Origin: a virus
Lineage: Duplodnaviria; Caudoviricetes
Strand: one strand, 5' to 3'
Length of the DNA: 58,951 nucleotides
Virus record (IMG/VR): IMGVR_UViG_3300031227_000044
Location: 1-58,951 of that record
Positions 18,766 to 58,951 of this stretch are shown in pieces; positions within the stretch are counted from its first letter, which is position 1, and each line of letters begins with the position of its first letter. Made by a program: the position numbers and the translations under genes. The notes under the pieces were generated by a model, which saw only the letters and a program-made list of their open reading frames with translations, had not been told where the DNA came from and did no database searches.

Positions 18766-19815
18766 TCAGGTGCCTGCTTTGCGAAGGCGTAATTTGCGTG
18801 TCTGGATTTTCGGCTGTGGCTCTCTTTGGTCTTTGTCGATGTGATGAAGCTGCCCGCCCGCCAAGACCTCGACCTCACCACGCTTTACCGCCGCCAGAAG
18901 GTCCGTAATGGCCTGCTCTCGGATTGCATGGTTGCGGGTATGGGTAGCGTCATATCCCCAGTTGTGGTCCGCAGGCGTGGCTACACAGTCGCTTCGTCTC
19001 AATCCGGCGCTGTCCGCGATTTTCTGTGCCGTTTCTCGCAGGGTTTCAATGGCCCATGGTTCTGGCTCGAAGTCAGCAGCGTCAGTGGTCGTTCCCGTCA
19101 CGGTCACTAGCGCACGGTCATCGCCAGCTTCTTCCGCTATACCAACCAGGCTATCGTTCTCACCAGAAACAGGGTGAACAACCGGTGCTTCTAACTCGAC
19201 CCCTGCGGTCCGAAACGCCTCCAGACTCCTGCTGAAATCATCCATCGAAAGTGCGCTGGACGACATTGCCTGCTGAAGCATTGTTCTTTGCACGGCATTT
19301 TCATAGCGCCGGGCCCGTTCAGCGTCAAATCGAGCCCTTACGCCAGCGGTGATGTCCTGAACAATTTCTACGCCCGTACGCTCCGTGGCCTGGCTCCGAT
19401 CATGCTCTACCACGGCATGGTCCTCGATCAGCTTGCCGACGAAAGGCCGTGCTGGGCCAATGCTTCCAAGACGAAGCATGTGTCCGTTCAGAGAAAAGAC
19501 GCGCCGTCTTGGTTGGGGAATTTCGCCCTTGAGGCCAAGAAGTTGTACCAGATCATCAGCGTGTGCAAGAGTTGCTGTCCTGAAGTACACGTTCTGCGTT
19601 TCCGCCAAGGCAATCGCGTAGGCAAGCTGGAAAGTGGTACGGCCAGATCCAATTGGTGCGCGGCGGAGTCTACCGGTGAGGGCTTCTGTATCGATTTCAA
19701 CCAGCCTGGCCCAGTGGGATTGAAGCCTATTTGGCTCAAAGCCAAGACACCGGATAGCCCGCATAGTGTGGGCACGTAACAGATATTCGTCATTTGCCAT
19801 CTTGTGTGTCCTCAT
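18766..19815 (-). CDS. Hypothetical protein with degenerate P-loop-like N-terminus and C-terminal TRKLRLRK motif
   Basis: APIGSGRTT; no clear Walker B; long ORF overlapping the upstream gene. Confidence 0.55.
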   Translation of the reverse strand: MRTHKMANDEYLLRAHTMRAIRCLGFEPNRLQSHWARLVEIDTEALTGRLRRAPIGSGRTTFQLAYAIALAETQNVYFRTATLAHADDLVQLLGLKGEIPQPRRRVFSLNGHMLRLGSIGPARPFVGKLIEDHAVVEHDRSQATERTGVEIVQDITAGVRARFDAERARRYENAVQRTMLQQAMSSSALSMDDFSRSLEAFRTAGVELEAPVVHPVSGENDSLVGIAEEAGDDRALVTVTGTTTDAADFEPEPWAIETLRETAQKIADSAGLRRSDCVATPADHNWGYDATHTRNHAIREQAITDLLAAVKRGEVEVLAGGQLHHIDKDQREPQPKIQTRKLRLRKAGT

Positions 19816-19981
19816 TGGCCCGGAGCCATGCGGTCAGGCGACTGCGCCGTACCCGGATGGTTCCCCCGACCCGAGTGACCCCCATCTCCTTGACAAGGCC
19901 ATACACCTTGGACCGCCCCACCTTCAACTCCTTGGCGATCTCCTTGGGAGTCATGAGTTCGTCTTTGTCGTGCTTGCCCAT
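19790..19981 (-). CDS. Excisionase-like HTH DNA-binding protein
   Basis: LMTPKEIAKELKVGRSKVYGLV...RVGGTIRVRRSRLTAWL. Confidence 0.8.
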   Translation of the reverse strand: MGKHDKDELMTPKEIAKELKVGRSKVYGLVKEMGVTRVGGTIRVRRSRLTAWLRANEDTQDGK

Positions 19982-19983
19982 GT

Positions 19984-20700
19984 TCACTTCCACCACTGGT
20001 AGAGGTCGTCGCACACGATGAGGCATCCCGACATCTCCGGGTCGCAACGGCCACTACAGTCCGTATCGATGAGGCATTCCACATTGTCTTCCAGACAGTC
20101 TCGGGAGCATCGGTAGTGGGGCAGGCGGTCAAAACACTCCCACAGAACCGTGCAGTCCAGCAGCCCGTACTGCATTGCAAGGCCGCACTGGCGAGAGCAG
20201 ATGATCCGGCCACAGCTTTGCGGAACCGGAAACATTACGCAGCATTCGGAGTAGCAGCCCTGGAATGGAAGGCTGGCTTCGTAAGTGCAGGCACTCCAAT
20301 CTTCTTCCGGGCAGGACGTTCCGGTGTCGTCGTCATCATTATCGTCATTGTCATCGTTGTCGTCGTTATTGTCGTTGTCGTCATCATCATTGTCATCATC
20401 GTCGTCATCGTCCAACGTGCCAGTCAGGAACCAGGGTGGCCTTTCGTCATCGCCGTCATCATCATCGCCATACCCCCCAAAGGCCACACAGCAGCCTGTA
20501 CTGGCCCCGGCGTCCTTCTGGCACACATAGCCCCGGCCCATCGCGATAGTGCACTCAGCGGTAAGGGCGCAGGCGTAGCAGCCATCGTCGTCGTCGTCGT
20601 CGTCGCCACAGCACGACAGGCTAATTACGATGAAGAACACAATGCCGATCAGGAGAAACCAGGCCCAGCAACCATTACCGTATCCATTATCTTGTCTCAT
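19984..20700 (-). CDS. Exported Asp-rich, Cys-rich lipoprotein-like protein
   Basis: Hydrophobic signal then SLSCCGDDDDDDD; poly-D/N linkers; numerous Cys; AGGAGG RBS and own promoter. Confidence 0.7.
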   Translation of the reverse strand: MRQDNGYGNGCWAWFLLIGIVFFIVISLSCCGDDDDDDDGCYACALTAECTIAMGRGYVCQKDAGASTGCCVAFGGYGDDDDGDDERPPWFLTGTLDDDDDDDNDDDDNDNNDDNDDNDDNDDDDTGTSCPEEDWSACTYEASLPFQGCYSECCVMFPVPQSCGRIICSRQCGLAMQYGLLDCTVLWECFDRLPHYRCSRDCLEDNVECLIDTDCSGRCDPEMSGCLIVCDDLYQWWK

Positions 20701-20720
20701 CTTGTACCTCCTATGCGGAA

Positions 20721-20750
20721 AGAATGGCACAATCCGGTACAGGATGTCAA
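20721..20750 (-). promoter_or_regulatory. Promoter of the lipoprotein-like gene
   Basis: TTGACA-N18-CATTCT. Confidence 0.45.
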
Positions 20751-20877
20751 GCTTTAATACAATTAAGGGAGTTTTGAGGAACAACTGGCCGGTAATACTG
20801 GTGATAAGCGGAGCGAACAGGAACATCCGGAGGGCGCCACAGGGCCTGGCTCTACCCTCCATGTGTGTCAGATATGC

Positions 20878-22071
20878 TTACACGGGTTCCACGAATCCCT
20901 CGTCAGTTATGGGTCGCCAGATTATGTGAAAGTGCATCTTGCCGCCGACTTGGCTGCCGGTAACGTTCCACCGGATAAAGGTGTCAAAGTCCACGTCTGC
21001 ATTCAACACAATGCTTCTCTTTTTAGGATCCACGCCTTTATCGACGGTAGGCGACCCTGCATTGAAAAGCGTTACTTTTTTACCTGGGTCCTCCGTCTTC
21101 ATTGCTATGGTTCCCACCGGGGCTGTGCTAAGGTCTGCCCCATTATCGAGGGTCATGTCCTCTTGAGCGGGAGATCCGCCACCCGCTGTCCATAGATCAA
21201 AATAAGCATCCGTATTCGTGCCCACCAAAGCGCTTGTGTCAACATGCCCGAAAATTTCCAGGACCTCTACTGCCCCCGTTACCTGGAATAAATTGTATTC
21301 AGTATCAGCACTCATCGTTATCAGTTTGTATTTTGTTTCTGGATAAGCAAATCTGGTCCAGACATTAGCATTATCTACGTCAACCCATCTGCCGTCTCCA
21401 CCACCTGTTGAGCAGTCAACGACCGTCCAATTGGTAGTGGCGGCACCAAGGTAATACCCCGATGTTTGATGTCCGCTGGAGGTGCAGTCACTGAGAATTC
21501 CCGTATTCGAACCGGTGACGTTGAAGCCATAAGTAGCCGCGTCCCCAACAGTACCGCAACCGTATAATCCTGCCTGTGCTCCCGTTACGTTAAATCCTGA
21601 AAAAGTATTCGCAGGGAATCCCGCCAAACAATTATTCAGGATAGCGCCTTCTCCGGTAATTTGGTAGCAATCTGCCCCGTCAACCACTTTGACATTATTA
21701 AGAACGCACTCGTCCCCGCTTACAAGTGTCCCCCCGGCGGCACTGTCTGGAGTTATCCTTAAGAAGCCATCAATTTCACATGAATTGCCCGATACGATTA
21801 GGCCCGTACCAGATGCGGGGTCAATAAGTGTTCCTCTTTCGCACCACATCTCACACGAACTACAAGCTAAATTAAGATTTAGCTCTGTGTACGTCCCTGC
21901 CGTAACGTTCAAAGCGTCACCACTGGACATTGCAGCGATTCCCGCTTTTATTGTTTCGAAGGCAGATTTTGGGGTTTTGCCTGAGTTGGTGTTGCTCCCG
22001 GTCCCTTTGTTTACGTACCAAATACCACCACCAAATTTCGGAATCTGTAAAGTATTGTTTATATAAGACAT
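20878..22071 (-). CDS. Right-handed beta-helix (pectin-lyase-like) protein, probably virion-associated
   Basis: WYVNKGTGSNTNSGKTPKSAFETI...GDALNVTAGTYTE N-terminal motif and regular G/N/C beta-helix repeats. Confidence 0.7.
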   Translation of the reverse strand: MSYINNTLQIPKFGGGIWYVNKGTGSNTNSGKTPKSAFETIKAGIAAMSSGDALNVTAGTYTELNLNLACSSCEMWCERGTLIDPASGTGLIVSGNSCEIDGFLRITPDSAAGGTLVSGDECVLNNVKVVDGADCYQITGEGAILNNCLAGFPANTFSGFNVTGAQAGLYGCGTVGDAATYGFNVTGSNTGILSDCTSSGHQTSGYYLGAATTNWTVVDCSTGGGDGRWVDVDNANVWTRFAYPETKYKLITMSADTEYNLFQVTGAVEVLEIFGHVDTSALVGTNTDAYFDLWTAGGGSPAQEDMTLDNGADLSTAPVGTIAMKTEDPGKKVTLFNAGSPTVDKGVDPKKRSIVLNADVDFDTFIRWNVTGSQVGGKMHFHIIWRPITDEGFVEPV

Positions 22072-22084
22072 CTAATCGATCTCC

Positions 22085-24049
22085 TTAGACAACGAATAAA
22101 TCCGACCCATTACAATAAACAGTAATCGAATCGTAATCACCAGTAATAACGGCTGTAGCCTGGCCATCAATTGTCTGACCACCTTCTGTAGTAAGCGTAA
22201 TGTTGAAGGCGGAAGCATTGCCACTAGCATCCTTAATAACTAAATAACGACCGGAGGTCATCTGTGCTGTTTTCCAATCAATAGCACAAGTACCAGCAGC
22301 AGTACGTGTAACATGGAGGATATCATCTGCAAGGAGTAGATCATAATTAGCTACGTTTACGGTTGTGACCGCTTTAAAGCGGTCTGCCTTTGCATCAACA
22401 GCGGTCTTCACTGCCTTCTGAGTAACCAAGCTCGTGTCTACGTTACCAGCAAGATCAGTCTTGATCAGCGTGATCCCAGGACCGGCCAACTCACCGATCC
22501 TGACAGCACCAACTAGAGTAGCTTCATCTGGATTATAGGCCAGGATTACGTCGCCTTCTGCTCCATCAACTCCACCACCACCATCTTCTTCACCAGCAAG
22601 TCCACCATAAATATAATTATCTCCGCCATCTCCGCCATCACCTGATGTATCGGCATCACCCCCAGGGCCCGCTCCTAATCGTATACCACCACCCTTAAAT
22701 CCACCACCGACTCCACTTGGCCCTCCTCCACCAGAACCCATAAAGATTATATCGCCAGAGTCAGAGTCTTCACTACCAGTAAATAATGCGATACGAAAAT
22801 CGGAAGAAGATACCCCTCCTAAAACAATTAATCCCCCAGGTATACCATAAGGAGTCCCATCTGATAATGCAAATAGCTCTTCACCAGAGCCGTTTATGGT
22901 AGGGTCTAATACTATTTTGCCATATTCTGAACCACTTGTTTTATCCATTATCTGTGTATATACACCGCCATACTCTACTTTATTTGGTGTTGCTGCATCG
23001 TCATAACCATATAGAGCAATTTGACCAGCTATATCACCCTCACTTGGAGCTGTATCGGAACTTTGCACGAACAATAGGTTAGCAGCATATACTCCTCTTT
23101 CTGCTATGGTCATTTTTTCAACACCAGCCATACTGAAATGATAAACTCCAGGAGTCCCTGCGCCTGAAGTGGTTCGTGTGTCAATTTTAATATGACTTAA
23201 TTTCTGTGCTCCAACATCATAAACTGACTGAATTGTTAGTGCATCTGAAACACTAGAGCCCAACGATATAACTGGATTTCCATCATTCGTGGCATCATAA
23301 ATTTCTAAATCTGTCAATCCTGTTATATCATGACCATCTACATCTAATGTCGCATCCAATTTACCATCTGCGCCAATAATGTTGTTGATCGCAGCCCGGA
23401 CTTCGGTATCAAGAACATGTTGGTCGTCGGCCAGAAGGCCTGAGAGAGCGGTAACGGAGATTTCATCTGTCCCGCCGTTCTCGTGGCTCCCATGGTGGCC
23501 TTGTGGCGCGTTGTTGGCGGTCACGTCCGCAAGAGCCTCCATGCCATCGAGTTTCGTCTTGTCGGCCCCGGACATGAGGCCGGAATTGCCGGCTGCAATC
23601 GCATCGGCAATCGTGTCCCCACCGCCCGTGACGTGGGTTGCAGCATGGTCTTTCGGTGGCTGGTCGTCGGCAAGTTCGCCGCTCAGGCCGGCCACGTTGA
23701 TCTCGTCACCGCCGCCGTTCTGGTGGGTCGCTGCATGAAGTTGGGCATGGTGGTCGTCAGTGGTCTGCCCGCTCGTGGAAGCATGGGGAAGGGTCCCGGT
23801 GTGATCCACTCCATCAATGGCATGGGCCTGGTTGTGATGATCGTTCGCCGTCTTTCCGGAAGTAGAAGCATGGGGCAACGTGCCCGTATGGGCCGACCCA
23901 GAGATATCATGGGCAAGAGGTGTCTGGGCATCGCCAGCAAGACCGGACAGCCCCGCGATGGAAACTTCGTCAGCCCCACCATTCTCATGCGTGGGCGCGT
24001 GGACACCAGGCACTCCGCCGTTCGTCTTGGGTGTTATGCGAATAGTCAT
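22085..24049 (-). CDS. Fibre-like structural protein with His-rich repeats
   Basis: Start MTIRITPK; HxxxHxxGGxD repeats; SGLMSGADKTKLDG fibre motif; Gly-rich segment; C-terminal IKDASG...TIDG domain. Confidence 0.75.
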   Translation of the reverse strand: MTIRITPKTNGGVPGVHAPTHENGGADEVSIAGLSGLAGDAQTPLAHDISGSAHTGTLPHASTSGKTANDHHNQAHAIDGVDHTGTLPHASTSGQTTDDHHAQLHAATHQNGGGDEINVAGLSGELADDQPPKDHAATHVTGGGDTIADAIAAGNSGLMSGADKTKLDGMEALADVTANNAPQGHHGSHENGGTDEISVTALSGLLADDQHVLDTEVRAAINNIIGADGKLDATLDVDGHDITGLTDLEIYDATNDGNPVISLGSSVSDALTIQSVYDVGAQKLSHIKIDTRTTSGAGTPGVYHFSMAGVEKMTIAERGVYAANLLFVQSSDTAPSEGDIAGQIALYGYDDAATPNKVEYGGVYTQIMDKTSGSEYGKIVLDPTINGSGEELFALSDGTPYGIPGGLIVLGGVSSSDFRIALFTGSEDSDSGDIIFMGSGGGGPSGVGGGFKGGGIRLGAGPGGDADTSGDGGDGGDNYIYGGLAGEEDGGGGVDGAEGDVILAYNPDEATLVGAVRIGELAGPGITLIKTDLAGNVDTSLVTQKAVKTAVDAKADRFKAVTTVNVANYDLLLADDILHVTRTAAGTCAIDWKTAQMTSGRYLVIKDASGNASAFNITLTTEGGQTIDGQATAVITGDYDSITVYCNGSDLFVV

Positions 24050-24053
24050 GACA

Positions 24054-24404
24054 TCAACCCCCCAGGGCTTGCCACTGAAGCTTCTGCCCAGCAGTGTCGG
24101 ATATCGCGTACAGCTTCTCCACATCCAGGAATGCACTCGAGCCAGGCTCCCAGTCACCGCTGTACACGATCGACTGGCTCTTCTCGATCGACACCGCCCC
24201 ACCGGCCACCACGCCACTGTTGCCAATCGAGATCGTGGCAGTCGCGGAGTTCCCGTTCGGCGCCACACCATCGGTGCTCTGGAACACCACCGACTGCACC
24301 TTCTCCAAATCACTGATCTGGCCAGGTGCGATAATGAGACCAGCAGCCACCGCACTCACCTCGATCTCGCCCTGAGCCAATATCTCCAATGTGAAGTCTG
24401 CCAT
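24054..24404 (-). CDS. Small beta-rich hypothetical protein, probably virion-associated
   Basis: MADFTLE start after GGAGGG; directly upstream of the fibre gene. Confidence 0.55.
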   Translation of the reverse strand: MADFTLEILAQGEIEVSAVAAGLIIAPGQISDLEKVQSVVFQSTDGVAPNGNSATATISIGNSGVVAGGAVSIEKSQSIVYSGDWEPGSSAFLDVEKLYAISDTAGQKLQWQALGG

Positions 24405-24527: not shown

Positions 24528-25686
24528 TTAAAGGGCCAGGTTCAGCCGCCCCTGCGCCGCGTATGGCTCGATTTGCTTCCGGGCCATCTCGCAGTATTCG
24601 GGGTTTGTTTCGATGCCTTTAAACTTTCGGCCAAGCTTGACCGCAGCAACGCCGCTTTTCCCCGATCCGCAGAACGGGTCCAGCACCGTATCCCCGATCC
24701 GCGAACCGGCAAGGATCATCCTGGTAACAAGCTTTTCGGGCCAGACCGCGAAATGCGCCCCCGGGAATGGCTGTGTCGGGATGGTCCAGACGTTGCGGGC
24801 GTTCCGGCCGGCAGGATGGCAGGCTTTTGTAATGTCGGTGGCAAGCGTCTGTCCGCCTGGGCCGTTGGTCCACTTGTGGTTTTCGCTACGTCCTCGCCCG
24901 ACACGGGCCAACGAATCGTCTTTGTGTGGTTCTCTTATCGCGTCCGCGTCGTAGTAGTACCTTTCCGACTTGGCCAGCAAAAACACGTGCTCATGCGAGG
25001 ATGTCGGCCTATCGGTTACGCTTTCCGGCATACAGTTGGGCTTGTGCCATATGATGTCCGACCGCAGATACCAGCCATCGGCCTGCAATGCGAAGGCAAC
25101 GCGCCACGGGATGCCCACGAGGTCCTTGTGCTTCAGGCCAAGGGAAGAAGCATCGTTTTCACGCCGAACAGGTGACTGTTCCTGCGCTTTTCCGCCGGCA
25201 AGCCCGGTTGTACCGTGTCCGCTGTGTGACTTTTTGTGGCCAATGGAGCAGTAAGAGTCCCCTAAGTTCAGCCACAGCGTCCCGTCATCTCGCAGGACCC
25301 GCTTGGCCTCCCGGAAGATGGCCACCAGGTGCTCCACGTAGAGTTCCGGGGTAGGCTCAAGGCCGAGTTGCCCCAACCAGGCCCCGCACTTCTGGCAGAA
25401 CTGCCCGCTTCCGGCTGTCTGGCCCTTGCCAGCGGCGTCGGCTGACTTCCACTTGGTTTGCTCAACCTGCCCCGGGTGGTGAGATGGACCGATGTCGCCC
25501 CACTGGTGCTCACAGGCAGGATCGCCACCCCACTCGGCCGGCTCACCCCCGTAGTCCCTTAGACCCCAATAGGGCGGAGACGTGGCCAGCATTTGAACCG
25601 ACCCCGACTCCATGCCAGCCATCACGTCCAGGCAGTCGCCTTCGATGACAGAATGAGTTACCAGTGGATCAGGCTTTGTTTCCAAA
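24528..25686 (-). CDS. DNA methyltransferase, N4-cytosine/N6-adenine beta class (start approximate)
   Basis: GDCL, TSPPYW (motif IV), GAHFAVWP, LDPFCGSG (motif I); Cys-rich insertion. Confidence 0.93.
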
Positions 25687-25720
25687 TAAACCGCCAATGC
25701 AAGATCGTGGTGGGGAGAAC

Positions 25721-25750
25721 AATATAAACCAAAGCGCAGAAGGATGTCAA
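25721..25750 (-). promoter_or_regulatory. Promoter of methyltransferase gene
   Basis: TTGACA-N18-TATATT; implies the listed ORF start at 25754 is too far upstream. Confidence 0.55.
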
Positions 25751-26347
25751 GCACAACTCAACTTGTAAGGATCGCTTACAGGTTCGGAATGAATCAGCAG
25801 GGGGGGGGACCAAACCGAACCCTCTTACGCACGAATGCAGAATCCGGGCCAACTTGTCACTAACGAAACGCCAGTTGTGAGGCACAAGCTATCTTGTCAA
25901 TAACGAATGAGACACAAAATTCAGTTCCCCGATATCATCGGACATCTGACAAAATCTCACAACACCAACCCGGGGGATTTTTTCGGATTCAAAATCTCGG
26001 AACCAGGAACCAGGGGAATTGAAGAAAGGGGGCGGCGGAAACCCAGAGGTAGACCAGAGAGACCAGAGAGACACCCCTGTCCGGACCACAATTCTGAATT
26101 CCTGGCGGACAATGGATTTGCGTCTTGAGGCCCCCAATACCTCTAAAGCTTTTGTTCCCACCCTTACCCCCATTACTTTTAGGATTTGGATCGCCAGAAG
26201 GTAGGGAAGGTCCCCGGCTCGCGCTTGTGGCGCTCGGCCCCTAACATCTGTTAGCGTGCAGGCTCCCGGGCTGACCAAACAAACCTTAATGTGATTTGAC
26301 AATCACACGAACATTCCAATTAATCGCACATTAACAGAACTTTATAC

Positions 26348-28952: not shown

Positions 28953-31049
28953 ATGAACGAAAACCCGTACATTGCAAGCGCGACCTATTCGCCCGAAGAT
29001 AACAAGCTCCGGATTTGCATGTTCTCTGATGACCGCTTGGAAAAGGATCTTTACGACCGGGTGAGGAAGGTTGGTTATCGTTGGGCCCCGCGTCAAAAGA
29101 TTTTCATTTGCCCCGCTTGGAATCCTGCGGCCGAGGATCTGGCCCTGGAATTTGCCGGGGAGATCGACGACGAAAACAGCACGATGGAGGAGAGAGCGGC
29201 CGAGCGGGCCGAGCGGTTCGAGCAGTACAGCGAGAAGCGGCAAGCAGATGGAGACCGGGACAGCGCCAACGCGGACCAAATAGCGCAACGATTCGCCGGG
29301 GGGCAGCCGATCCTAGTGGGCCACCACTCCGAGAAGAAAGCCCGCAAGGACGCGGAGCGCATTGATACCAGTATGCACCGGGCCTTGAAGATGTGGGAAA
29401 CGTCCGAATATTGGAAGCAACGCGCGGCCGGAGCCCTTCACAATGCAGAGTATAAGCAACTCCCCGGCGTCCGGGCCCGACGTATCAAGAAACTGGCCGC
29501 AAGCCTGCGGAAGAGCAAGAAATACCTGGACAAATCCGAAGCAGGATTGAAGGCGTGGACCGCCGACAATCTCACTCCTGAACGGGTAGCCTTTCTGATC
29601 GGCCATGATTCCCTCGTGTCCATGGAGCTATACCTTGCCCATCGGGACGGCAAGGTGACCGACGAGGAGGCGAAGGGGCGAAGGGTACGAGGTGCCCGGG
29701 TGGCAATCGCCTATTATCTCCGATGGATTCGGCACTATGAGCACCGACTCACCTATGAACGCGCCCTCATGGCCGAAGATGGCGGGATGAAGGCCGAAGG
29801 GATCGACATCAAGCCAGGCGGGAAGGTCTGTTACCTGGGCGAATGGCTCACGGTCATCAGGACAAATCGCCGAGACGGTGAACTCGTCAGCGTGACAACC
29901 ACCAGCCCGGCCGGCATGACCTACCGGAGCACCTACCCGGTCCCGGCCGAAGCCATCACGGACTATACCGCCCCGACCGACGACGACGCCAAGAAGATCA
30001 GGAAGGCCAAAGCGAGGCCCCCGATTTGCAACTACCCAAAAGAGGGGACATATCCGGTCAAGTGGGAGGCATGGCAAGCAGAGCACACGGACTATCGAGG
30101 GATGCGGGTAGTTGAGGCCACGACCGAACACGGAGCGCACCGGGTCCGGACTATGCTGGGCTCCCATATCGGCCTGCATGGAGACATGAACAAGCGCCAC
30201 AGCTACCATTCCGTTTTCATCACCGACAAGCCCGAGAAGCAGCCCCCGGCCCCTCCGGAGCAACCCGAGGAACAAGAGACGCTTTCAAGCATGAAGGCAG
30301 ACCACGAACTGGCCGCACGGGTGGCACAGGGAGCACCGAAGCGGAGAGAGTACAAGCCCAGCCCCACCCGTGAGAAGATCAACCAGGCCCGGGACACCAT
30401 CAAGGCAGGGATCAAGGTTGTGAGCGCCCCGACCCTTTACCCAACGCCCAAGGAGATAGCCCGGCGTATGGTCGAAATGGCCGGGGGTGTCTGCATCGCT
30501 GGACACCGAGTCCTTGAGCCTAGCGCCGGAACCGGAAACTTGATCAAGGCAGCGGTAAACACTGCAACGGGTTTTGATTGCGTCCGGGTAGTTGCGGTCG
30601 AAATCAACCACGACTTGGCCGGGGCCCTGCGGGGCATGCGCAGCAAGTTTCTTTATGGCACCGAGAGCAACTTTGAAATTCACCAGGGCGACTTCTTAGA
30701 TATGACCCCGAAGGACTTGGGAGACTTCAACACAATCATAATGAATCCGCCTTTCAACAAGGGCGCGGACATCAAGCACATCGAACACGCAACGAGTTTT
30801 CTCAAGCCTGGCGGAACGCTGGTGGCCCTGTGTGCCAACGGACCCCGGCAGCGGTCGGCATTCATGGACAAGGCCGAGCATTGGGAAGACCTCCCGGAAG
30901 GGTCATTCAAAGAAGCAGGGACGGGCGTAAACGTGGCCCTGATGGTGCTGCGGGGAGAGCAGAAGACCGAGCAGCCCGAGGCCAGAGAAGAAAAGAAAGG
31001 GGCACCGGCTCCAAACCCCAAGGCAATCCAGCAACTTGGGCTATTTTAG
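28953..31049 (+). CDS. DUF3560 domain fused to N6-adenine-type methyltransferase
   Basis: RAERF...GQPILVGHHSEK (DUF3560); YPTP, LEPSAGTG, MNPPF, F..AGT.V (MTase). Confidence 0.9.
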   Translation: MNENPYIASATYSPEDNKLRICMFSDDRLEKDLYDRVRKVGYRWAPRQKIFICPAWNPAAEDLALEFAGEIDDENSTMEERAAERAERFEQYSEKRQADGDRDSANADQIAQRFAGGQPILVGHHSEKKARKDAERIDTSMHRALKMWETSEYWKQRAAGALHNAEYKQLPGVRARRIKKLAASLRKSKKYLDKSEAGLKAWTADNLTPERVAFLIGHDSLVSMELYLAHRDGKVTDEEAKGRRVRGARVAIAYYLRWIRHYEHRLTYERALMAEDGGMKAEGIDIKPGGKVCYLGEWLTVIRTNRRDGELVSVTTTSPAGMTYRSTYPVPAEAITDYTAPTDDDAKKIRKAKARPPICNYPKEGTYPVKWEAWQAEHTDYRGMRVVEATTEHGAHRVRTMLGSHIGLHGDMNKRHSYHSVFITDKPEKQPPAPPEQPEEQETLSSMKADHELAARVAQGAPKRREYKPSPTREKINQARDTIKAGIKVVSAPTLYPTPKEIARRMVEMAGGVCIAGHRVLEPSAGTGNLIKAAVNTATGFDCVRVVAVEINHDLAGALRGMRSKFLYGTESNFEIHQGDFLDMTPKDLGDFNTIIMNPPFNKGADIKHIEHATSFLKPGGTLVALCANGPRQRSAFMDKAEHWEDLPEGSFKEAGTGVNVALMVLRGEQKTEQPEAREEKKGAPAPNPKAIQQLGLF

Positions 31050-52849: not shown

Positions 52850-53657
52850 CAACCAGCCCGACACCCCCAAGCCCGCCCCGGCCTTTTGCCCGAAGCACGG
52901 AACCGTCCTGGCCCCTATGTGGACGGGCGTTCTTAACCAGATGCTCCCCAACACCATGAAGCAGTACGGGGAAATGGGTAAGGCCAAGTGGGTGCATGAG
53001 CTTTGCCCAGAATGCGAGAGGGAAAGGAGCGTAAGCGATCTAAAGACCAGGCAGAGGAAGGCGCGGATCGCCCAGACATCCCCGTTCGGAGAGAAGTTCG
53101 ACGACGCCACGTTTGAAAACTACACCTGCAAAACGGATGCGATGAAGAAGGTCAGGAATGAAGTCAGGTCCTGCGTCAGCACGGCCATCAGCGGAGAGCC
53201 ACCAGCCCCGAGAAACGTGCTGTTCCTTTGTGGCAACACCGGGACGGGCAAGACCCACTTGATGGAGTCGGCCTTCAAGCAGATGGCTGAAGCCCAGTGC
53301 CGGGTGCTGGCCTTTGAGCGTACGGCCATCATTCACCAGATGAAGACTCACATGAGCATCAGCCAAGAGAGCGGCATCGCCGGGTACGCAAAGCAAATCT
53401 GCTCCACACCACTTCTTCTGCTGGACGACTTTGAGCCCAGGCATTGGGATGACCAGTCGCAGGCAGATCGTGAGATCATCTTCGAGTTGTTCAACACGAT
53501 CTACAAGATGCGTACCCGCACGATCATCACGTCGAACATCAAGGAGTCTGACTTCAAGAGCAGGATCGGGAAGCCGGCCGCATCACGCTTTACCGAGATG
53601 AGGGAAAAGATCATCATGTCCTGGGGAGACAAACGAGAAGAAAAGAGGTTGATATGA
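52764..53657 (+). CDS. DnaC/IstB-like helicase loader ATPase
   Basis: ATFENY, GNTGTGKTHL, LLLLDD, IITSN. Confidence 0.9.
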   Translation: MTDQDKTETVEGRDQSRTSQVERITPTIDNQPDTPKPAPAFCPKHGTVLAPMWTGVLNQMLPNTMKQYGEMGKAKWVHELCPECERERSVSDLKTRQRKARIAQTSPFGEKFDDATFENYTCKTDAMKKVRNEVRSCVSTAISGEPPAPRNVLFLCGNTGTGKTHLMESAFKQMAEAQCRVLAFERTAIIHQMKTHMSISQESGIAGYAKQICSTPLLLLDDFEPRHWDDQSQADREIIFELFNTIYKMRTRTIITSNIKESDFKSRIGKPAASRFTEMREKIIMSWGDKREEKRLI

Positions 53658-53875: not shown

Positions 53876-54083
53876 AAGCGCAGGACAGGCAGCGGAAAGG
53901 GGCATCATGGAACACCTGGCCTACGATAAAGAGAAGGGCTACCAGACCAATTGGGACTTCGTGCGGCTGGACGTTGTTAGCTATTTGTGGGAGATGCACG
54001 AATTGTTTATGGGCGATGCGATCAAGGTCTACGGGAAAGCGAAAAGGAAACACGAATCAGTCCTTGATCCAACCACGACTTAG
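53865..54083 (+). CDS. Hypothetical protein
   Basis: AGGAG RBS; last plus-strand gene before the convergent cluster. Confidence 0.5.
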   Translation: MDDESAGQAAERGIMEHLAYDKEKGYQTNWDFVRLDVVSYLWEMHELFMGDAIKVYGKAKRKHESVLDPTTT

Positions 54084-54971
54084 GTAGTCTGCAATCGTCT
54101 TGGTCAGTCCACTACGAAGGTCAGTCTTGGGCGTCCAGTCCAGTTCTTCCTCTGCCGTCACGAAGTCCATGCACGACAGCGGGTTTCCGCCCGACTCAGA
54201 AGAGTAATGCAGAACCTCGATTTTGTCCGTGACCAATTCTTCGATCATCGACCACAACTTGTTGACGGACGTGGCAATGCTGGTCGAGACATTCACGGTT
54301 TTCCCGTCCCCTACTTTCCCGGCCATCCGGAACGCCAACACAACGTCATCCACGTATACGAAGTCCCGCTGCTGTTCGCCCGATCCCTTGATGGCCGCAG
54401 CCCGTCCCTCCAGTGCAGCCTTCAGGAAAGACCCCACCACGGCCTTAGGCTTCCACTGGTGCCCATATACGTTGCTGAGCCGTATGATCGTAGCCCGAAG
54501 GCCCTTCTGCTCATACAGGCGAATGTACTCCTCACTCGCGGACTTCGTGATGCCATAGGCGCTTCTCCACGGCGCCTCTTGAGGACTCCACCGGTCTTGC
54601 GGAAGACTGTACATGGCCCCGGTGCCGGCGAAGACCAGCTTGGCTCCACAGGCCAGGCAGGAACCAGCCGTCGCCACGGTCGCCTCGATGTTCGACTGGA
54701 TCCCCTTCCGCAGGATATCGAGGTCAAGCGAAGAGGCTATCCCGGATTCAGCGGCCAAATGAAAAACCACATCCGGGTTGAACTCCCGAATTGCTCTCTG
54801 GGCCTCCGGGGTTTCCAGTCTCGCTTGAATATGGTTGGACCACGGCCTTGGAAAAGGAAGGGGCAGGAGGTCCACCGTGAGAACATGGTGGGCTTCTTGT
54901 TCCAGGCTTGCGGCCAGGTGTCCCCCGATGAACCCTGCCGCCCCTGTTACCACGGCCTTCATAGACGCCAC
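54057..54971 (-). CDS. NAD-dependent nucleotide-sugar epimerase/dehydratase (GalE-like extended SDR)
   Basis: VTGAAGFIG, HLAA, YGITK (YxxxK), NVYG, RDFVYVDD. Confidence 0.92.
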   Translation of the reverse strand: MASMKAVVTGAAGFIGGHLAASLEQEAHHVLTVDLLPLPFPRPWSNHIQARLETPEAQRAIREFNPDVVFHLAAESGIASSLDLDILRKGIQSNIEATVATAGSCLACGAKLVFAGTGAMYSLPQDRWSPQEAPWRSAYGITKSASEEYIRLYEQKGLRATIIRLSNVYGHQWKPKAVVGSFLKAALEGRAAAIKGSGEQQRDFVYVDDVVLAFRMAGKVGDGKTVNVSTSIATSVNKLWSMIEELVTDKIEVLHYSSESGGNPLSCMDFVTAEEELDWTPKTDLRSGLTKTIADYLSRGWIKD

Positions 54972-56119
54972 TGCACTTTGGGCAGGATGGAATCCTGGCA
55001 GTCACGAATCCGATCCGCATGAGGAGCCAGGTCGGACAACATGGCCAGCAATTCAGCCTTCATGTCATGGGTGGGTACATAGCCCAGGTCGAGGAGCTTT
55101 TGATGGTCAGGCTCGTAGAAATGTTCTTCTGCTTCTTTCCTTGGGTTCTGGACGGCCTGGATCGCAATCTCCCTCTCGAACACTTCCTGGCCGGCTTCCG
55201 CAACGGCTTCCGCCAACTCGGTGATGCCGTAGATGTCCTCAAACTGGTTGACGACCCGGTATTCACCTTCCGCAGGGGGCTTCTCCAGCAGCAGCGTCAT
55301 GCACTGGATGGAGTCCCGCAGAGTCAGAAACCCCCGAATCTGGCGACCCTTGCCGTAAGGGGTCAGGGGCAGCCCGATGGTAGCTTGAGCACAGAAGCGA
55401 TTGATGACCGTCCCGAACGCTTCGTCGAAGTCGAACCGGGTACATAGTCCGGGATCCAACATGGTCTCGTCCGTCTTGGTTCCGTAGACCGGGCCCTGCA
55501 TGATGTCGGTGGACCGGAAGCCCCACGCTTTGCACACGAGAGCGATGTTGGTTGAGTCGTGAACTTTGGTGGCATGGTAGAAGCTGCCCGCAGCTTTGGG
55601 GAACGGGACGGTGGCGGTGTGGCCCTTGTAGCTCATCTCGCAGAACCCTTCAGCAATGGGCATCCCGGGCGTTCCATATTCGCCCATCGTTCCCAGCTTC
55701 AGCAGGTGGGTTTTCGGGCAAGCCTTTTGCATGGCCCAGAGCAACGACAGGGTGCCGTTGATGTTGTTGTCGTGGGTGAAGCGGGCGTGTTCGAAATCAA
55801 TCATGGAGTACGGAGCCGATGGCATCTCGCCCAGGTGAACGATTGCGTCCGGTTGGAAGATTTCCAGCAAGTTAACCACCACGGCATGATTCCGAACGTC
55901 AATTTCCTGGTAGTCAATAGATTTTCCGGTCTTGTCTTGAAAGATTCCCAGACGCTCCCTCATGGGAAGAATGGGCAACGCCGAGACACTTCCCATCTCC
56001 GCTACCATGTCCCGGCGACTCCCGTTGTCGATGCCAAAAACATCATGACCGCGCTGCGCCAGGTGCATTGCCAGGGGCCAACCAAGATAGCCGTCCATTC
56101 CGATGATGAAAATCTTCAT
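54959..56119 (-). CDS. sqdB: UDP-sulfoquinovose synthase (SqdB/SQD1/Agl3 family)
   Basis: GMDGYLGWP, SAPYSMID, KLGTMGEYGTP, SFYHATKVHD, QGPVYG, FGTVINRFC, YGKGRQIRG: the family signatures. Confidence 0.93.
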   Translation of the reverse strand: MKIFIIGMDGYLGWPLAMHLAQRGHDVFGIDNGSRRDMVAEMGSVSALPILPMRERLGIFQDKTGKSIDYQEIDVRNHAVVVNLLEIFQPDAIVHLGEMPSAPYSMIDFEHARFTHDNNINGTLSLLWAMQKACPKTHLLKLGTMGEYGTPGMPIAEGFCEMSYKGHTATVPFPKAAGSFYHATKVHDSTNIALVCKAWGFRSTDIMQGPVYGTKTDETMLDPGLCTRFDFDEAFGTVINRFCAQATIGLPLTPYGKGRQIRGFLTLRDSIQCMTLLLEKPPAEGEYRVVNQFEDIYGITELAEAVAEAGQEVFEREIAIQAVQNPRKEAEEHFYEPDHQKLLDLGYVPTHDMKAELLAMLSDLAPHADRIRDCQDSILPKVQWRL

Positions 56120-56928
56120 TTCAGTCTTTCCATGTGCGAGGTGTATAACGCCTGTGCTTCTTCGACACTAGAACAAGGAAAGAGCAACAAGGAGGCGTGT
56201 TCTCTGGCCCCTTTCGTGCGCTTCCCACCCGGCATCCACTGTAGCTCTATTTCGTCAAACTTCTTCTCAGCCGGGGGCCGGGGCCTGGTGGCCCGAATTT
56301 CCCCCCCGACAAATTGGCCTTGAGTTGACGACAACGATTCGACGATCAGGCCAAACCCTTCCGAGGTGCCCATAGCGCATCCCCAGCCGTGGCCAGTAAA
56401 CCCAACCTTCAGTCGTTGCGGAATCGGGGCCTCCACCATCGGCTCAACGGCCAGAGGCTCCCATGCCTTCTGCTCGTCAGATCGAATGCCCATGTACGTT
56501 GGCCTCACTGCCCCAACGGCGTATCTTTGCGTAGCCCCTCCTGGAGCGAGGAAGCAAATCGAAGTGTCCCCAGATGATTCGATATCTCGCAAATACATGC
56601 GGCTTACATCGATCCTCAACACTCTTGGGTCATCGGTTTCCATCAGAACGGTTCTGAACTCTTGAGTGTCCCCCCGACCTTCTTCCGTGCGGGACTCCCC
56701 CCTTATCAGTATCCCGGATTTGGTTCGGACAACCTTGGCGTCTTCGCAATACAGCCCTCCGAGGAAGTGATTAGCAGACCGATATTTTTGATCTACCCGT
56801 ACCTCTGGGAACAACTCGATAACCTCGTGGAGGGCGCCCCTGTCCGACAGGACGCCATCTTTGCCCGAAAATCGAATCAATCCTCTTGAAAGAACTTCAA
56901 CCGTATAATGTGAAGTTGAAATCTCCAT
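56116..56928 (-). CDS. Hypothetical beta-rich protein within the sugar cluster
   Basis: Start MEISTSHY right after the MTase stop; ATGA overlap with sqdB. Confidence 0.6.
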   Translation of the reverse strand: MEISTSHYTVEVLSRGLIRFSGKDGVLSDRGALHEVIELFPEVRVDQKYRSANHFLGGLYCEDAKVVRTKSGILIRGESRTEEGRGDTQEFRTVLMETDDPRVLRIDVSRMYLRDIESSGDTSICFLAPGGATQRYAVGAVRPTYMGIRSDEQKAWEPLAVEPMVEAPIPQRLKVGFTGHGWGCAMGTSEGFGLIVESLSSTQGQFVGGEIRATRPRPPAEKKFDEIELQWMPGGKRTKGAREHASLLLFPCSSVEEAQALYTSHMERLK

Positions 56929-56930
56929 CG

Positions 56931-57557
56931 TCAGCGCTTTCTCCACACATAGAGAGTAATGACTCTGTTGTTGAAATCTCTCGTCATCGTCAGGAATGGA
57001 TACAGGGAAGGAGGTGTGGCCTTGCGAACCTCTGAGGTCGTCAGATAGGAACGTATTTGTTTCCGATTCCGTTCGTCTTGATACCAATCCAAGGCGACGT
57101 AACCCCCTGGCCTTAGCAACTCCGAGGATCGAGACAAGAATTCGTCGGGCCCTTGTTCGAGATCGTACCAAGAATCCATGCAGCTAATCAGGCCCAAAGA
57201 CGCTGGGGCCATACCGTCCAAGGGGTCTAGCTTGCTTCCCTGTCGGAACTCTGCTGGTATTCCAACCTTGTCCCACAGACCTTTGGCGATCAGGCCCTTG
57301 GATGCGTCATAGTCCGTGCCGATCAGATTGCGGTAGCCCATGTCGCCGATGTAGGCCAGCCAGAAGCCAACGCCACAGCACACGTCCACAATCGGGGCAT
57401 CTTTCGGAAGGCTCGGAAGAACATGACCCCTGAGGTTTGAGATAATCCACCCACCGGACTGCCTGGGGTTTCGACGGAGGAAATATCCCAAATACCGATC
57501 CCGAAGTTCAGGGGCCAGGTCCTCCAAGGCCGCTTGGATTTTATCTCCTATCTCCAC
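56931..57557 (-). CDS. Class I SAM-dependent methyltransferase
   Basis: IVDVCCGVG, GTD, LLRPGG; no DNA-MTase PPY/PPF motif. Confidence 0.85.
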   Translation of the reverse strand: MEIGDKIQAALEDLAPELRDRYLGYFLRRNPRQSGGWIISNLRGHVLPSLPKDAPIVDVCCGVGFWLAYIGDMGYRNLIGTDYDASKGLIAKGLWDKVGIPAEFRQGSKLDPLDGMAPASLGLISCMDSWYDLEQGPDEFLSRSSELLRPGGYVALDWYQDERNRKQIRSYLTTSEVRKATPPSLYPFLTMTRDFNNRVITLYVWRKR

Positions 57558-58891
57558 AGTTCCACCGCCATGAGATCCCTGGTTACTTTTGTCTGCCCGC
57601 GATGAACGACCATGCGGGCCGGCTTGACGGCTTCAAACAGCTTGGTCCAGGACTTCTCGCGAAGGCGCTGATAGATGAACCCGGACTGAATCAGGGTCTT
57701 GTCCTCGGGCAAAAGGTCTACCCCGAATACGCGCACAATCAATACCGTGCCGGTTATCCTCCAAAGTTCCGAGATGGCAGTGGGGATTTTGTCGAGAGGC
57801 AAGTGCGGAAGCACCGCCGCACAGTTGACGAACGGATGGCTGCGTGTTTTCTGCTTGCTCTTGAAGATGTCGTCCAGTTCAACGTCGATGGCCGGGAATC
57901 TTTCTCGGGCCCGGAGAAGCATATCCCTGGTAACGTCCACGCCCTTGTAGGACAATTTCAAAACCTTGGATAACTCGGGGTAGTCTTCGCCAGTACCGCA
58001 GCCGAAATCAAGCACTGTTGACGACCCGGACTCGGGCGCCACATCATGGAGGATATCGTAGTAAAGCTTCCGCCGTTCCTGCTGGTTAGGGTCATTCTTC
58101 CAGAAATCCTCAACCGCTTCTCGTGCAGGAGCCTGCTCCCATCGCTGCCACCACCGATCATCGAATATCCGCTCCAACTCCTTCAGGGAGTTTGTCCAGG
58201 AAATCCCCCGGCTCCGAACTTCAGCGATCCGCTTGGGCGCATCCTGCACTCGCTGGAGTTGAAAGACCTCTGGCACATGAAAGCCCTTGATCCCATTCCT
58301 GAGCATGTGCCAGACGACCCGCCATTCCTCGTGCTCGGGGAAGGAGCGATCCAGGTAGGGCGATACCGTCTCCCAGGCGGATCGACGGTAGGCATAGTAG
58401 GAACCCCTGAACAGGTTGGCCTTGCTGCGGTCCTGGATCATCTGAGATGTCCGGACAATCTCATCGCCTGCCTTATGAGAGCCGTCACTCTGGTCCACCA
58501 TGAACTGAGCTTGGATGTCGGTATGGACGAAGCCCACATCAGCGGCCACGCTGTCGAGGGGAAGGGGCCCCAAGGCCAAATCGTCATCGTCAAGATTGAC
58601 AATCCAATCCCCGGAAGCCTTGTCGAAAAGACCAAATCTGGCCCTTGCCAAGTCTTTGCGCTGGTCCGTCCCACCGAGAATCTTGATTTCCACGCCGGGG
58701 CGCCCACGCAAAGCCGCACGACTCACTCTGGCGATGTCGGCATGATCGTAGCCGTACTTCCCGGATGACACTTGCGGGCTGATGCCGAAGAGGATTTCAT
58801 TCGGCAGCGCGTATTTCAGAAGCGACTCGATGGCTTCCTGCACAACCTTGAAGTCTGGTTGGGAGATAAGCATACAGGCGGTGACTTTCAT
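57548..58891 (-). CDS. GT2-like glycosyltransferase fused to class I SAM methyltransferase
   Basis: N-terminal GT-A fold ASGDWIVNLDDDD; C-terminal VLDFGCGTG...GVD...HLP. Confidence 0.8.
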   Translation of the reverse strand: MKVTACMLISQPDFKVVQEAIESLLKYALPNEILFGISPQVSSGKYGYDHADIARVSRAALRGRPGVEIKILGGTDQRKDLARARFGLFDKASGDWIVNLDDDDLALGPLPLDSVAADVGFVHTDIQAQFMVDQSDGSHKAGDEIVRTSQMIQDRSKANLFRGSYYAYRRSAWETVSPYLDRSFPEHEEWRVVWHMLRNGIKGFHVPEVFQLQRVQDAPKRIAEVRSRGISWTNSLKELERIFDDRWWQRWEQAPAREAVEDFWKNDPNQQERRKLYYDILHDVAPESGSSTVLDFGCGTGEDYPELSKVLKLSYKGVDVTRDMLLRARERFPAIDVELDDIFKSKQKTRSHPFVNCAAVLPHLPLDKIPTAISELWRITGTVLIVRVFGVDLLPEDKTLIQSGFIYQRLREKSWTKLFEAVKPARMVVHRGQTKVTRDLMAVELWR

Positions 58892-58950
58892 TTCAATGCC
58901 TCCAAGATTTGGCTTCCAACTGTTTGGCGATCAAACAGAAGGCCGCGTTT
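58888..58950 (-). CDS. C-terminus of an upstream gene (truncated by window edge)
   Basis: KRGLLFDRQTVGSQILEALK* with ATGA overlap on the GT start. Confidence 0.45.
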   Translation of the reverse strand, partial: KRGLLFDRQTVGSQILEALK

Positions 58951-58951
58951 T

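Follow-up and report, generated by a model that had tools for sequence, protein, structure and literature searches.

Sulfoquinovose is found in the lipids of photosynthetic membranes and in the N-glycans of archaea. The virus record IMGVR_UViG_3300031227_000044 raises the question of whether a bacteriophage can also encode a route to this sugar and, if so, what the sugar would be attached to. The stretch analyzed here, referred to below as the window, is the whole of this IMG/VR record, a single contig of 58,951 bases, and close to its right-hand end lies a cassette of five genes, one of which encodes a relative of the uridine diphosphate (UDP)-sulfoquinovose synthases SqdB and SQD1. The interpretation that we favor, with a probability of roughly 0.55, is that this is a resident and conserved phage cassette of soluble cytoplasmic enzymes that would make an activated sulfo-sugar and build a methylated glycan.

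Five minus-strand open reading frames (ORFs) occupy positions 54057-58891 and successive genes are spaced by -10, +2, -4 and -13 nt (Table 1), which bears out the tightly coupled operon that had been described in a reading made without database searches (the sequence-only reading). The longest frame of the third gene, which encodes a 270-amino acid (aa) protein, overlaps the second methyltransferase gene. Its true start is most likely the ATG at 56928, because this codon follows the preceding stop at a distance of 2 nt and is also where homologues start. Likewise, the epimerase likely starts at the ATG at 54962, overlapping the sqdB stop, since alignments to PDB entries start at residue 4 of its longest frame. 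A hydrophobic segment is absent from all five proteins (hydrophobicity maximum 1.48), and all five enzymes are predicted to be soluble. The identities that the sequence-only reading had assigned, namely a GT2-methyltransferase fusion, a second methyltransferase, a UDP-sulfoquinovose synthase and a GalE-like epimerase, hold by Pfam, NCBIfam and PDB matches together with fold, the GT2 part by way of its fold, and, as it had also noted, no SqdX-like gene is visible in the window.

The SqdB-like protein, an extended short-chain dehydrogenase/reductase (SDR), matches NCBIfam NF041015 over residues 1-385 (E 7e-160, 532.1 bits, or 531.7 in a second scan) and the Arabidopsis SQD1 structure 1QRR over residues 2-385 against 3-383 (E 1e-110, 374 bits), and it is 39% identical to Sinorhizobium meliloti SqdB (E 6e-83, 247 bits). 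It contains GxxGxxG, T144-M145-G146 and Y181-x3-K185. The motif [ST]MG...Yx3K is the fingerprint of UDP-sulfoquinovose synthases (PMC8987622), and the catalytic residues of SQD1 are Thr145, Tyr182 and Lys186 (PMC4388408). Apart from one position that is considered below, the positions tested are kept in the window enzyme (His95, Thr144, Met145, Gly146, Glu147, Tyr148, Tyr181, His182 and Lys185), and of these His95, Met145, Glu147 and Tyr148 matter in Agl3. Full-length homology and the NAD-binding GxxGxxG are therefore common to this enzyme and to SQD1 (PDB 1QRR/1I24), bacterial SqdB and archaeal Agl3, and UDP-sulfoquinovose synthase is its likely activity on the strength of these matches. In contrast to these cellular enzymes, the window enzyme is phage-encoded and has a Pro where SQD1 and Agl3 have Arg101, and it is accompanied by the fusion, another methyltransferase, the epimerase and a mutarotase-like protein rather than by SqdX, by SqdC/SqdD or by genes of Agl N-glycosylation. 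Arg is also present at this position in S. meliloti SqdB and in a Pseudonocardia homologue. In an alignment of 190 rows, comprising the window, 5 cassette, 63 IMG/VR and 120 metagenome sequences and S. meliloti SqdB, Pro occupies the position in 188, and Arg is found only in S. meliloti and one IMG/VR row. As judged from this alignment, the window enzyme is a member of a large "Pro-type" SqdB clade of uncultured bacteria and phages. We know of no assay for any Pro-type member.

The fusion combines a GT-A (GT2-like) glycosyltransferase at residues ~1-240 with a class I S-adenosylmethionine-dependent methyltransferase at residues ~270-447, the C-terminal part scoring 42.6 bits against Pfam Methyltransf_25 (cut-off 27). 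Against the GT2 family PF00535 the fusion scores 17.8 bits, which is below the cut-off of 23.3, and PF00535 matches only 2 of 13 fusion-family members at E<=0.01. However, in the AlphaFold2 model (predicted local distance difference test, pLDDT, 90), Foldseek pairs the N-terminal domain with SpsA (1h7q/1qg8, E 6e-10, TMt 0.62-0.64) and further with AvpGT, WrtF and RmlT, and pairs the C-terminal half with methyltransferases. A DDDD metal/donor motif, D101-D104, is nearly invariant in 13 fusion homologues. Weak by sequence, the identity of the N-terminus as a GT-A glycosyltransferase is thus confirmed by the fold of the predicted model. The second methyltransferase scores 31.3 bits against Pfam Methyltransf_23 (cut-off 27), and a PDB search gave no relative of this 208-aa protein. 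Its BLASTP comparison with the fusion gives an E value of 1.2 and, at the level of sequence, the separate and the fused methyltransferase are not recent paralogues.

The 270-aa protein has no Pfam or NCBIfam family at E<=0.01 and no PHROG match, and a PDB sequence-profile search for its family returned only a chance match (E 0.13). The family is small, with 7 proteins among 5.8 billion and, in a profile search, 28 representatives at E<=0.001 among 1.84 billion. Nevertheless, the AlphaFold2 model is confident (pLDDT 91.7, predicted template modeling score 0.90) and has the fold of a galactose-mutarotase-like beta-supersandwich. In VIA, the closest match is the middle domain of a PL26 rhamnogalacturonan lyase (Z 18.7, root-mean-square deviation 3.5, 237 aligned residues), followed by domains of GH38, GH2 and GH174 enzymes and of a galactosaminidase (Z 15-18) and by a minor capsid protein of PBCV-1 (Z 16.8), whereas Foldseek finds the stand-alone aldose 1-epimerases 3nre and 1snz (E 2-4e-6). 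The Atlas model of the family has the same fold neighbors, and in BFVD a fold search turned up nothing beyond domains of this general fold from chloroviruses and tail proteins. The fold is therefore shared with supersandwich domains, both aldose 1-epimerases and the non-catalytic domains of GH2, GH38, PL26 and GH174 enzymes, over 210-240 residues (Foldseek E 1e-6 to 1e-5), but the window protein lacks a sequence-family match to mutarotase-like proteins, stands alone and is locked to sqdB in gene order. Five residues are invariant in the family (E35, H54, D121, D225 and E226); the catalytic set of aldose 1-epimerases is His/His/Asp/Glu. Given its gene linkage, the modeled protein is probably a sugar-binding or sugar-converting component, a role for which the shared fold by itself shows nothing.

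The remaining enzyme matches Pfam Epimerase (140.9 bits, E 6e-41) and the nucleotide-sugar epimerases of phrog_540 (E 4e-57), and its closest solved relative is the UDP-glucose 4-epimerase 4ZRM (E 3e-37). The TGxxGxxG and YxxxK motifs are present and the dehydratase acid/base pair is absent, the protein having T-G-A where 4,6-dehydratases have T-D-E, together with YGITK (motif table in PMC8987622). We predict from these features a GalE-like, NAD-dependent nucleotide-sugar 4-epimerase. The score against NCBIfam galE TIGR01179 is 67.1 bits, short of the cut-off of 262.3, and a UDP-hexose is therefore a putative substrate.

Does the same set of genes occur elsewhere? A profile of the 270-aa family detected 13 loci in JGI metagenome contigs. 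By tblastn of the window proteins, a SqdB-like gene is present in 9 of the 13, as is the second methyltransferase, which adjoins the fusion in 8. The fusion, whole or as a single domain, is found in 8 and the epimerase in 5, with the shorter contigs ending within the cassette. All five genes are present in all four loci longer than 9 kb (L082, L083, L088 and L093). The gene order of the window is kept in L082, L083 and L093, whereas L088 has a split fusion and a shuffled order. The 270-aa gene is duplicated in some loci (L082, L088 and L091). Because the same gene set and order recur in independent metagenome contigs, the cassette is more than a chance arrangement, and this recurrence and the galactose-mutarotase-like fold of the 270-aa protein are new here. 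In a FastTree phylogeny of 109 SqdB-like rows, the window, 5 cassette rows and the short-contig protein P0002 group together with an SH-like support of 94, a value below the starred level in a tree with one long-branch pair flagged. Scans of IMG/VR with the fusion and 270-aa profiles gave no relative, although the window's own record may be masked there.

Just upstream of the cassette, all four long loci contain transferases of the Glycos_transf_1 family (GT4 class) and more methyltransferases, and a helicase is the sole one of their 47 ORFs with a hydrophobicity as high as 1.8. The system of the relatives is therefore larger, and soluble throughout. By analogy, the complete phage probably has further GT4-type transferases and methyltransferases immediately upstream, and a GT4 enzyme with the fold class of SqdX may lie past the window edge; none of the contigs listed when those of four runs were overlaid extends beyond position 58951. 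At a distance of 1.5 kb downstream of one related cassette is a SNF2-type helicase gene split by an intein that contains an HNH endonuclease (L093:14765-18112), and a 596-aa ATP-grasp (RimK-like) protein with a QueC-like C-terminus, a possible link to deazapurine chemistry, directly follows another (L088:10563-12353).

Protein scans with PHROG and Pfam identify the window as a contractile-tailed phage. The convergent junction between the last ORF of the replication module and the epimerase gene is spanned by a 754-base contig (53926-54679, no differences) of X2, an independent run with another sample and study code, and also by a 2314-base contig of run X1. Cassette GC content is 0.54-0.58, compared with 0.566 +/- 0.039 in 38 other genes, and GC at third codon positions is 0.58-0.72, compared with 0.671 +/- 0.096 in the same genes. 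The tetranucleotide correlation between cassette and phage body is 0.907, compared with a median of 0.903 for the body's own 5-kb windows. Phage-type genes neighbor related cassettes, including RusA (L083), DUF5131/phrog_2045 (L084), and a ParB-N6 DNA methylase with the intein-split SNF2 helicase (L093). Finally, a search of 185,579 species genomes (GTDB) with the fusion profile, resting on two peptide patterns only, gave 10 pattern matches, one relative and no locus. We therefore take the cassette to be phage-borne. Its position inside a phage genome, as the sequence-only reading had supposed, is upheld by the terminase, portal, capsid, sheath and tape-measure genes, the bridged junction and the matching composition. 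The suggestion that it sits downstream of the tail module is not borne out, in that the record is linear and ~67% complete and the late operon is cut at its start.

How might the five proteins act together? In the pathway that we propose, the GalE-like epimerase would balance the UDP-hexose pool or epimerize the product, and the SqdB-like enzyme, going by its family membership and with the caveat of one residue, would convert UDP-glucose and host-made sulfite to UDP-sulfoquinovose. The GT-A domain of the fusion, its fold seen in the model, would then transfer the sugar to an acceptor, donor and acceptor both being presumed, and the fused and separate methyltransferases would O-methylate the glycan. 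The mutarotase-like protein, as its fold and strict gene linkage suggest, may bind or convert the sugar or the growing glycan.

The preferred acceptor, by analogy and as a tentative guess, is the phage's own virion proteins, because the cassette has no membrane component and the viral precedents for soluble transferases and methyltransferases are virion glycans. To our knowledge, no sulfo-sugar has been reported in the virion glycosylation of mycobacteriophages. Capsid and tail-tube subunits of mycobacteriophages are glycosylated (Freeman 2023 as cited in PMC12619734), the work being done by phage-encoded soluble glycosyltransferases in the cytoplasm, albeit in other hosts and phage types than here. 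Another precedent is PBCV-1 A064R, which has two rhamnosyltransferase domains and a 2-O-methyltransferase domain and acts on the capsid glycan (PMC7826918). Like the window fusion, for which this activity is predicted, A064R is a virus-encoded glycosyltransferase/methyltransferase fusion that adds sugar and then methylates, whereas it differs in belonging to a eukaryotic giant virus and in transferring rhamnose with three domains rather than a predicted sulfo-sugar with two. Taken to its full extent, the idea would be that this small group of cassette-bearing phages covers its virions with a methylated glycan whose sulfonate groups give it a permanent negative charge and whose synthesis is wholly the work of phage enzymes, which is possible though doubtful.

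Several points count against the favored interpretation. The NF041015 score of the SqdB-like protein lies under the curated cut-off of 575 bits, and Pro100 sits where SQD1 and Agl3 have Arg101, a residue without which Agl3 (R101A) is inactive (PMC4388408). The synthase, which the sequence-only reading had called intact, is thus so in its full-length match and fingerprint but not in these two respects. Pfam scans found no sulfite-supplying gene in the window. Among the 13 related loci, L083, L084 and L087 give the same tblastn identities and look like near-copies, so that independent lineages number ~6-8, and no structural phage gene was seen beside the related cassettes, whose neighbors occur on other mobile elements too. 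Since the record is a fragment, the place of the cassette relative to the tail genes is not fixed. The GT-A fold of the modeled fusion does not favor protein acceptors, because RmlT and SpsA act on envelope polymers. Lastly, the enzyme activity and the glycan are predictions and the acceptor is a guess.

With these points in mind, other explanations can be weighed, beginning with those that would alter the origin or the chemistry. The cluster might be host DNA, either a prophage flank or part of an assembly chimera, given that the linear fragment ends 60 bases from it and that the closest SqdB relatives outside the cassette group are bacterial metagenome proteins. This is scarcely credible next to a junction that is spanned in two runs, including an independent one, a composition identical to that of the phage body, the lack of a fusion locus from the species genomes (again from two peptide patterns), related cassettes beside phage-type genes and complete viral genomes with terminal repeats that carry sqdB. 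A more serious contender holds that the Pro-type enzyme adds no sulfite and stops at UDP-glucose-5,6-ene or uses another nucleophile, which would lead to a methylated 6-deoxy sugar that is non-sulfonated or otherwise substituted. UDP-sulfoquinovose synthases without sulfite are 5,6-dehydratases (PMC8987622), and the near-universal Pro in the alignment, the dead Agl3 variant and the missed NF041015 cut-off all lend themselves to this explanation. Nevertheless, all the other positions tested are kept, the window enzyme is closer to SQD1 (374 bits) than to the accepted S. meliloti SqdB (247 bits), and retention of Pro by a whole large clade suggests a compensated, functional site, so that we regard this outcome as quite unlikely.

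The other explanations keep the pathway and move its end point. The acceptor could be a host component, such as a lipid-linked precursor of a surface polysaccharide, a teichoic-acid-like polymer or a membrane lipid, with the consequence of a changed cell surface (superinfection exclusion or serotype change) or of altered membrane charge during infection in brine. The closest solved GT-A folds include SpsA, the wall teichoic acid rhamnosyltransferase RmlT, WrtF and chondroitin polymerase; the cellular enzyme serves lipids and surface glycans; and the sqdB of S. meliloti adjoins a glycosyl transferase gene, as a haloarchaeal homologue adjoins GT4 and wecB. Published accounts of viral SQD1 or UDP-sulfoquinovose synthase likewise assume host targets (PMC7785012; PMC13288924). 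However, neither the window cassette nor its four long relatives contain a membrane protein, flippase, polymerase or polyprenyl-phosphate transferase. Classic surface-conversion genes of phages (Gtr-type and acetyltransferases) encode membrane proteins, which also speaks against a host acceptor. Nor is lysogeny supported, no integrase or repressor being recognized by PHROG and Pfam in the 67% of the genome present. A host acceptor is, on balance, unlikely. Placement of the sugar on phage DNA, as a hypermodified base that would shield it from host nucleases, draws on the glycosyltransferases known from DNA-hypermodifying viruses (Pyle 2024 as cited in PMC12619734), on another viral lineage with sqdB in its replication module beside a dCMP deaminase gene, on the QueC-like gene after one related cassette and on the solubility of the enzymes. 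It is very unlikely, given that Pfam reveals no hydroxymethylase, thymidylate-synthase-like or other base-modifying gene in the 67 window ORFs (a third of the genome being missing) and that two methyltransferases, with the several GT4 enzymes of the relatives, suggest an oligosaccharide that exceeds known DNA glycans in size. The product could also be a small soluble sulfonated and methylated glycoside, for example a compatible solute in the infected cell in hypersaline water. All listed runs that contain the stretch are labeled salt lake metagenome (10 runs, 10 study codes, with the possible source run among them), the pathway is soluble throughout and viral SQD1 expression is up with salinity (PMC13288924). 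Yet there is no phosphatase or other typical partner of a solute pathway and the extra transferases of the relatives fit a glycan, not a monoglycoside, which makes a solute exceedingly improbable.

The favored interpretation, a phage cassette for a methylated sulfo-glycan, can be compared with what is recorded for sqdB in other viruses. Tblastn of the SqdB-like protein against 50,697 GenBank phage records gave no match. A scan of IMG/VR with the SqdB alignment gave 172 pattern matches, and 137 stretches encode a relative. We examined the best 80 of these 137 loci (43-56% identity), 79 of which gave a sqdB ORF. The fusion, the second methyltransferase and the 270-aa protein occur in none of the best 80 of 137, and a distant epimerase occurs in 12. 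In one viral lineage, accounting for 37-47 of the 80 (loci L015-L080), a solitary sqdB lies in the replication module directly after a dCMP deaminase gene. The genes that neighbor sqdB across the best 80 of 137 loci encode a Sak4-like protein (45), dCMP deaminase (40), a PD-(D/E)XK nuclease (35), a ParB-methylase (32) and DNA polymerase A (24). Of five complete or near-complete genomes of the solitary-sqdB lineage that were examined, four have terminal repeats, all five have a GT2 gene elsewhere and none has a GT1-family gene. In this lineage, primase and ligase genes are also near sqdB, and examples include L068:9439-11218, L061, L019, L029 and L078. Other IMG/VR contigs, such as L001, contain large islands with GT4, GT2, methyltransferase and sulfotransferase-like genes.

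In the literature, a Mu-like virus with a putative UDP-sulfoquinovose synthase was described by Mara et al. in 2020, with a proposed effect on host N-glycosylation (PMC7785012), and SQD1 is listed elsewhere among the most expressed viral auxiliary genes, its expression rising with salinity (PMC13288924). As for the window, these are virus-borne homologues from metagenomes with functions that were inferred. They differ in being discussed as single genes linked to host glycosylation or membranes, whereas the window has a five-gene cassette with its own transferase and methyltransferases. Our literature searches found no paper that places sulfoquinovose on a virion, DNA or host surface by means of a phage pathway. 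The claim that such a modification is undescribed in phages is therefore too broad for the synthase, which has been in print since 2020 (PMC7785012), and stands, within these searches, for a demonstrated sugar on virion, DNA or host surface. Prior reports of viral sqdB make the finding less new, and the Arg-to-Pro change and the guessed acceptor make it less certain; it is strengthened by the synteny kept among relatives, by the two folds and by the bridged junction.

If true, a virion coat of sulfonated glycan would be a modification not yet shown for any virus, and it would involve a new mutarotase-fold component and a Pro-type clade of sulfoquinovose synthases. A self-contained, phage-encoded route to a methylated sulfo-glycan would extend virus glycobiology to a further class of chemistry, would offer a way into the question of how brine phages tune particle charge, adsorption and evasion of host defenses, and would reveal a non-phototrophic, virus-driven source of organosulfonate. 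The cassette is a compact five-gene set that includes two near-orphan families with confident models and, because the Pro-type clade is large, the activity of its enzyme bears on the annotation of thousands of bacterial genes.

Outside the cassette, the window is divided between a late module and a replication/recombination module (Table 1). In IMG/VR the record is listed as linear, CheckV puts its completeness at 67%, and no terminal repeat was found in it. A minus-strand gene from position 112 runs off the record start, which indicates that the late operon is cut. No wedge or fiber genes were recognized in the PHROG and Pfam scans of the window, and baseplate or fiber genes are probably missing from the record owing to this truncation. 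Circular closure was considered, in that a 37-codon open frame at the window start would read in frame into the last 60 bases, but was dropped because of the linear class and 67% completeness of the record and because a run of 19 codons without a stop is nothing out of the ordinary. The window contains no tRNA genes, a promoter and terminator scan gave no more matches than shuffled sequence, and no RNA dataset is among the listed runs that contain the stretch.

Table 1. Positions of the cassette genes and of the other mapped features of the window
Feature	Position	Strand	Remarks
GT-A/methyltransferase fusion	57548-58891	minus	447 aa
Second methyltransferase	56931-57557	minus	208 aa
Mutarotase-fold protein	56116-56928	minus	270 aa; longest frame 56116-57171
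SqdB/SQD1-like extended SDR	54959-56119	minus	386 aa
GalE-like epimerase	54057-54962	minus	301 aa from ATG 54962; longest frame 54057-54971, GTG start, 304 aa
Bases upstream of the cassette	58892-58951	minus	60 nt; GGAGG ribosome-binding site 7 nt before ATG; record ends
Late module (PHROG/Pfam)	~26300 down to 109	minus	DNA methylase, muramidase-type endolysin, large terminase, portal, protease, major head protein, sheath, tube, tape measure, Dit-like, Pam3-type plug, baseplate hub, spike-like protein
Replication/recombination module (PHROG/Pfam)	26507-54083	plus	AAA ATPase, PD-(D/E)XK exonuclease, single-stranded DNA-binding protein, RusA, DUF5131, replication initiator, DnaC-like loader
Truncated gene	1-112	minus	starts at ATG 112-110; overlaps stop of spike-like gene (109-969); leaves record start

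Four large ORFs (349, 292, 397 and 756 aa) on the minus strand at 18766-24355, between the DNA methylase and endolysin genes, have no Pfam or PHROG match, and GC content falls to 0.47-0.49 at 21-24 kb in this region. They are candidate host-recognition proteins, unusually placed upstream of the terminase. Two genes of DNA-methylase type were also seen, one at 24528-25754 for a 408-aa N6/N4 methylase and one at 28953-31049 for a 698-aa protein in which DUF3560 is joined to a C-terminal methyltransferase domain resembling those of very large phage proteins. Finally, short contigs from runs X1 and X4 that are 90-95% alike to the window map to the genes for the DnaC-like loader (53041-53323) and the epimerase (54400-54625) and to the start of sqdB (56009-56145), and on this basis related strains of the phage coexist in the same waters.

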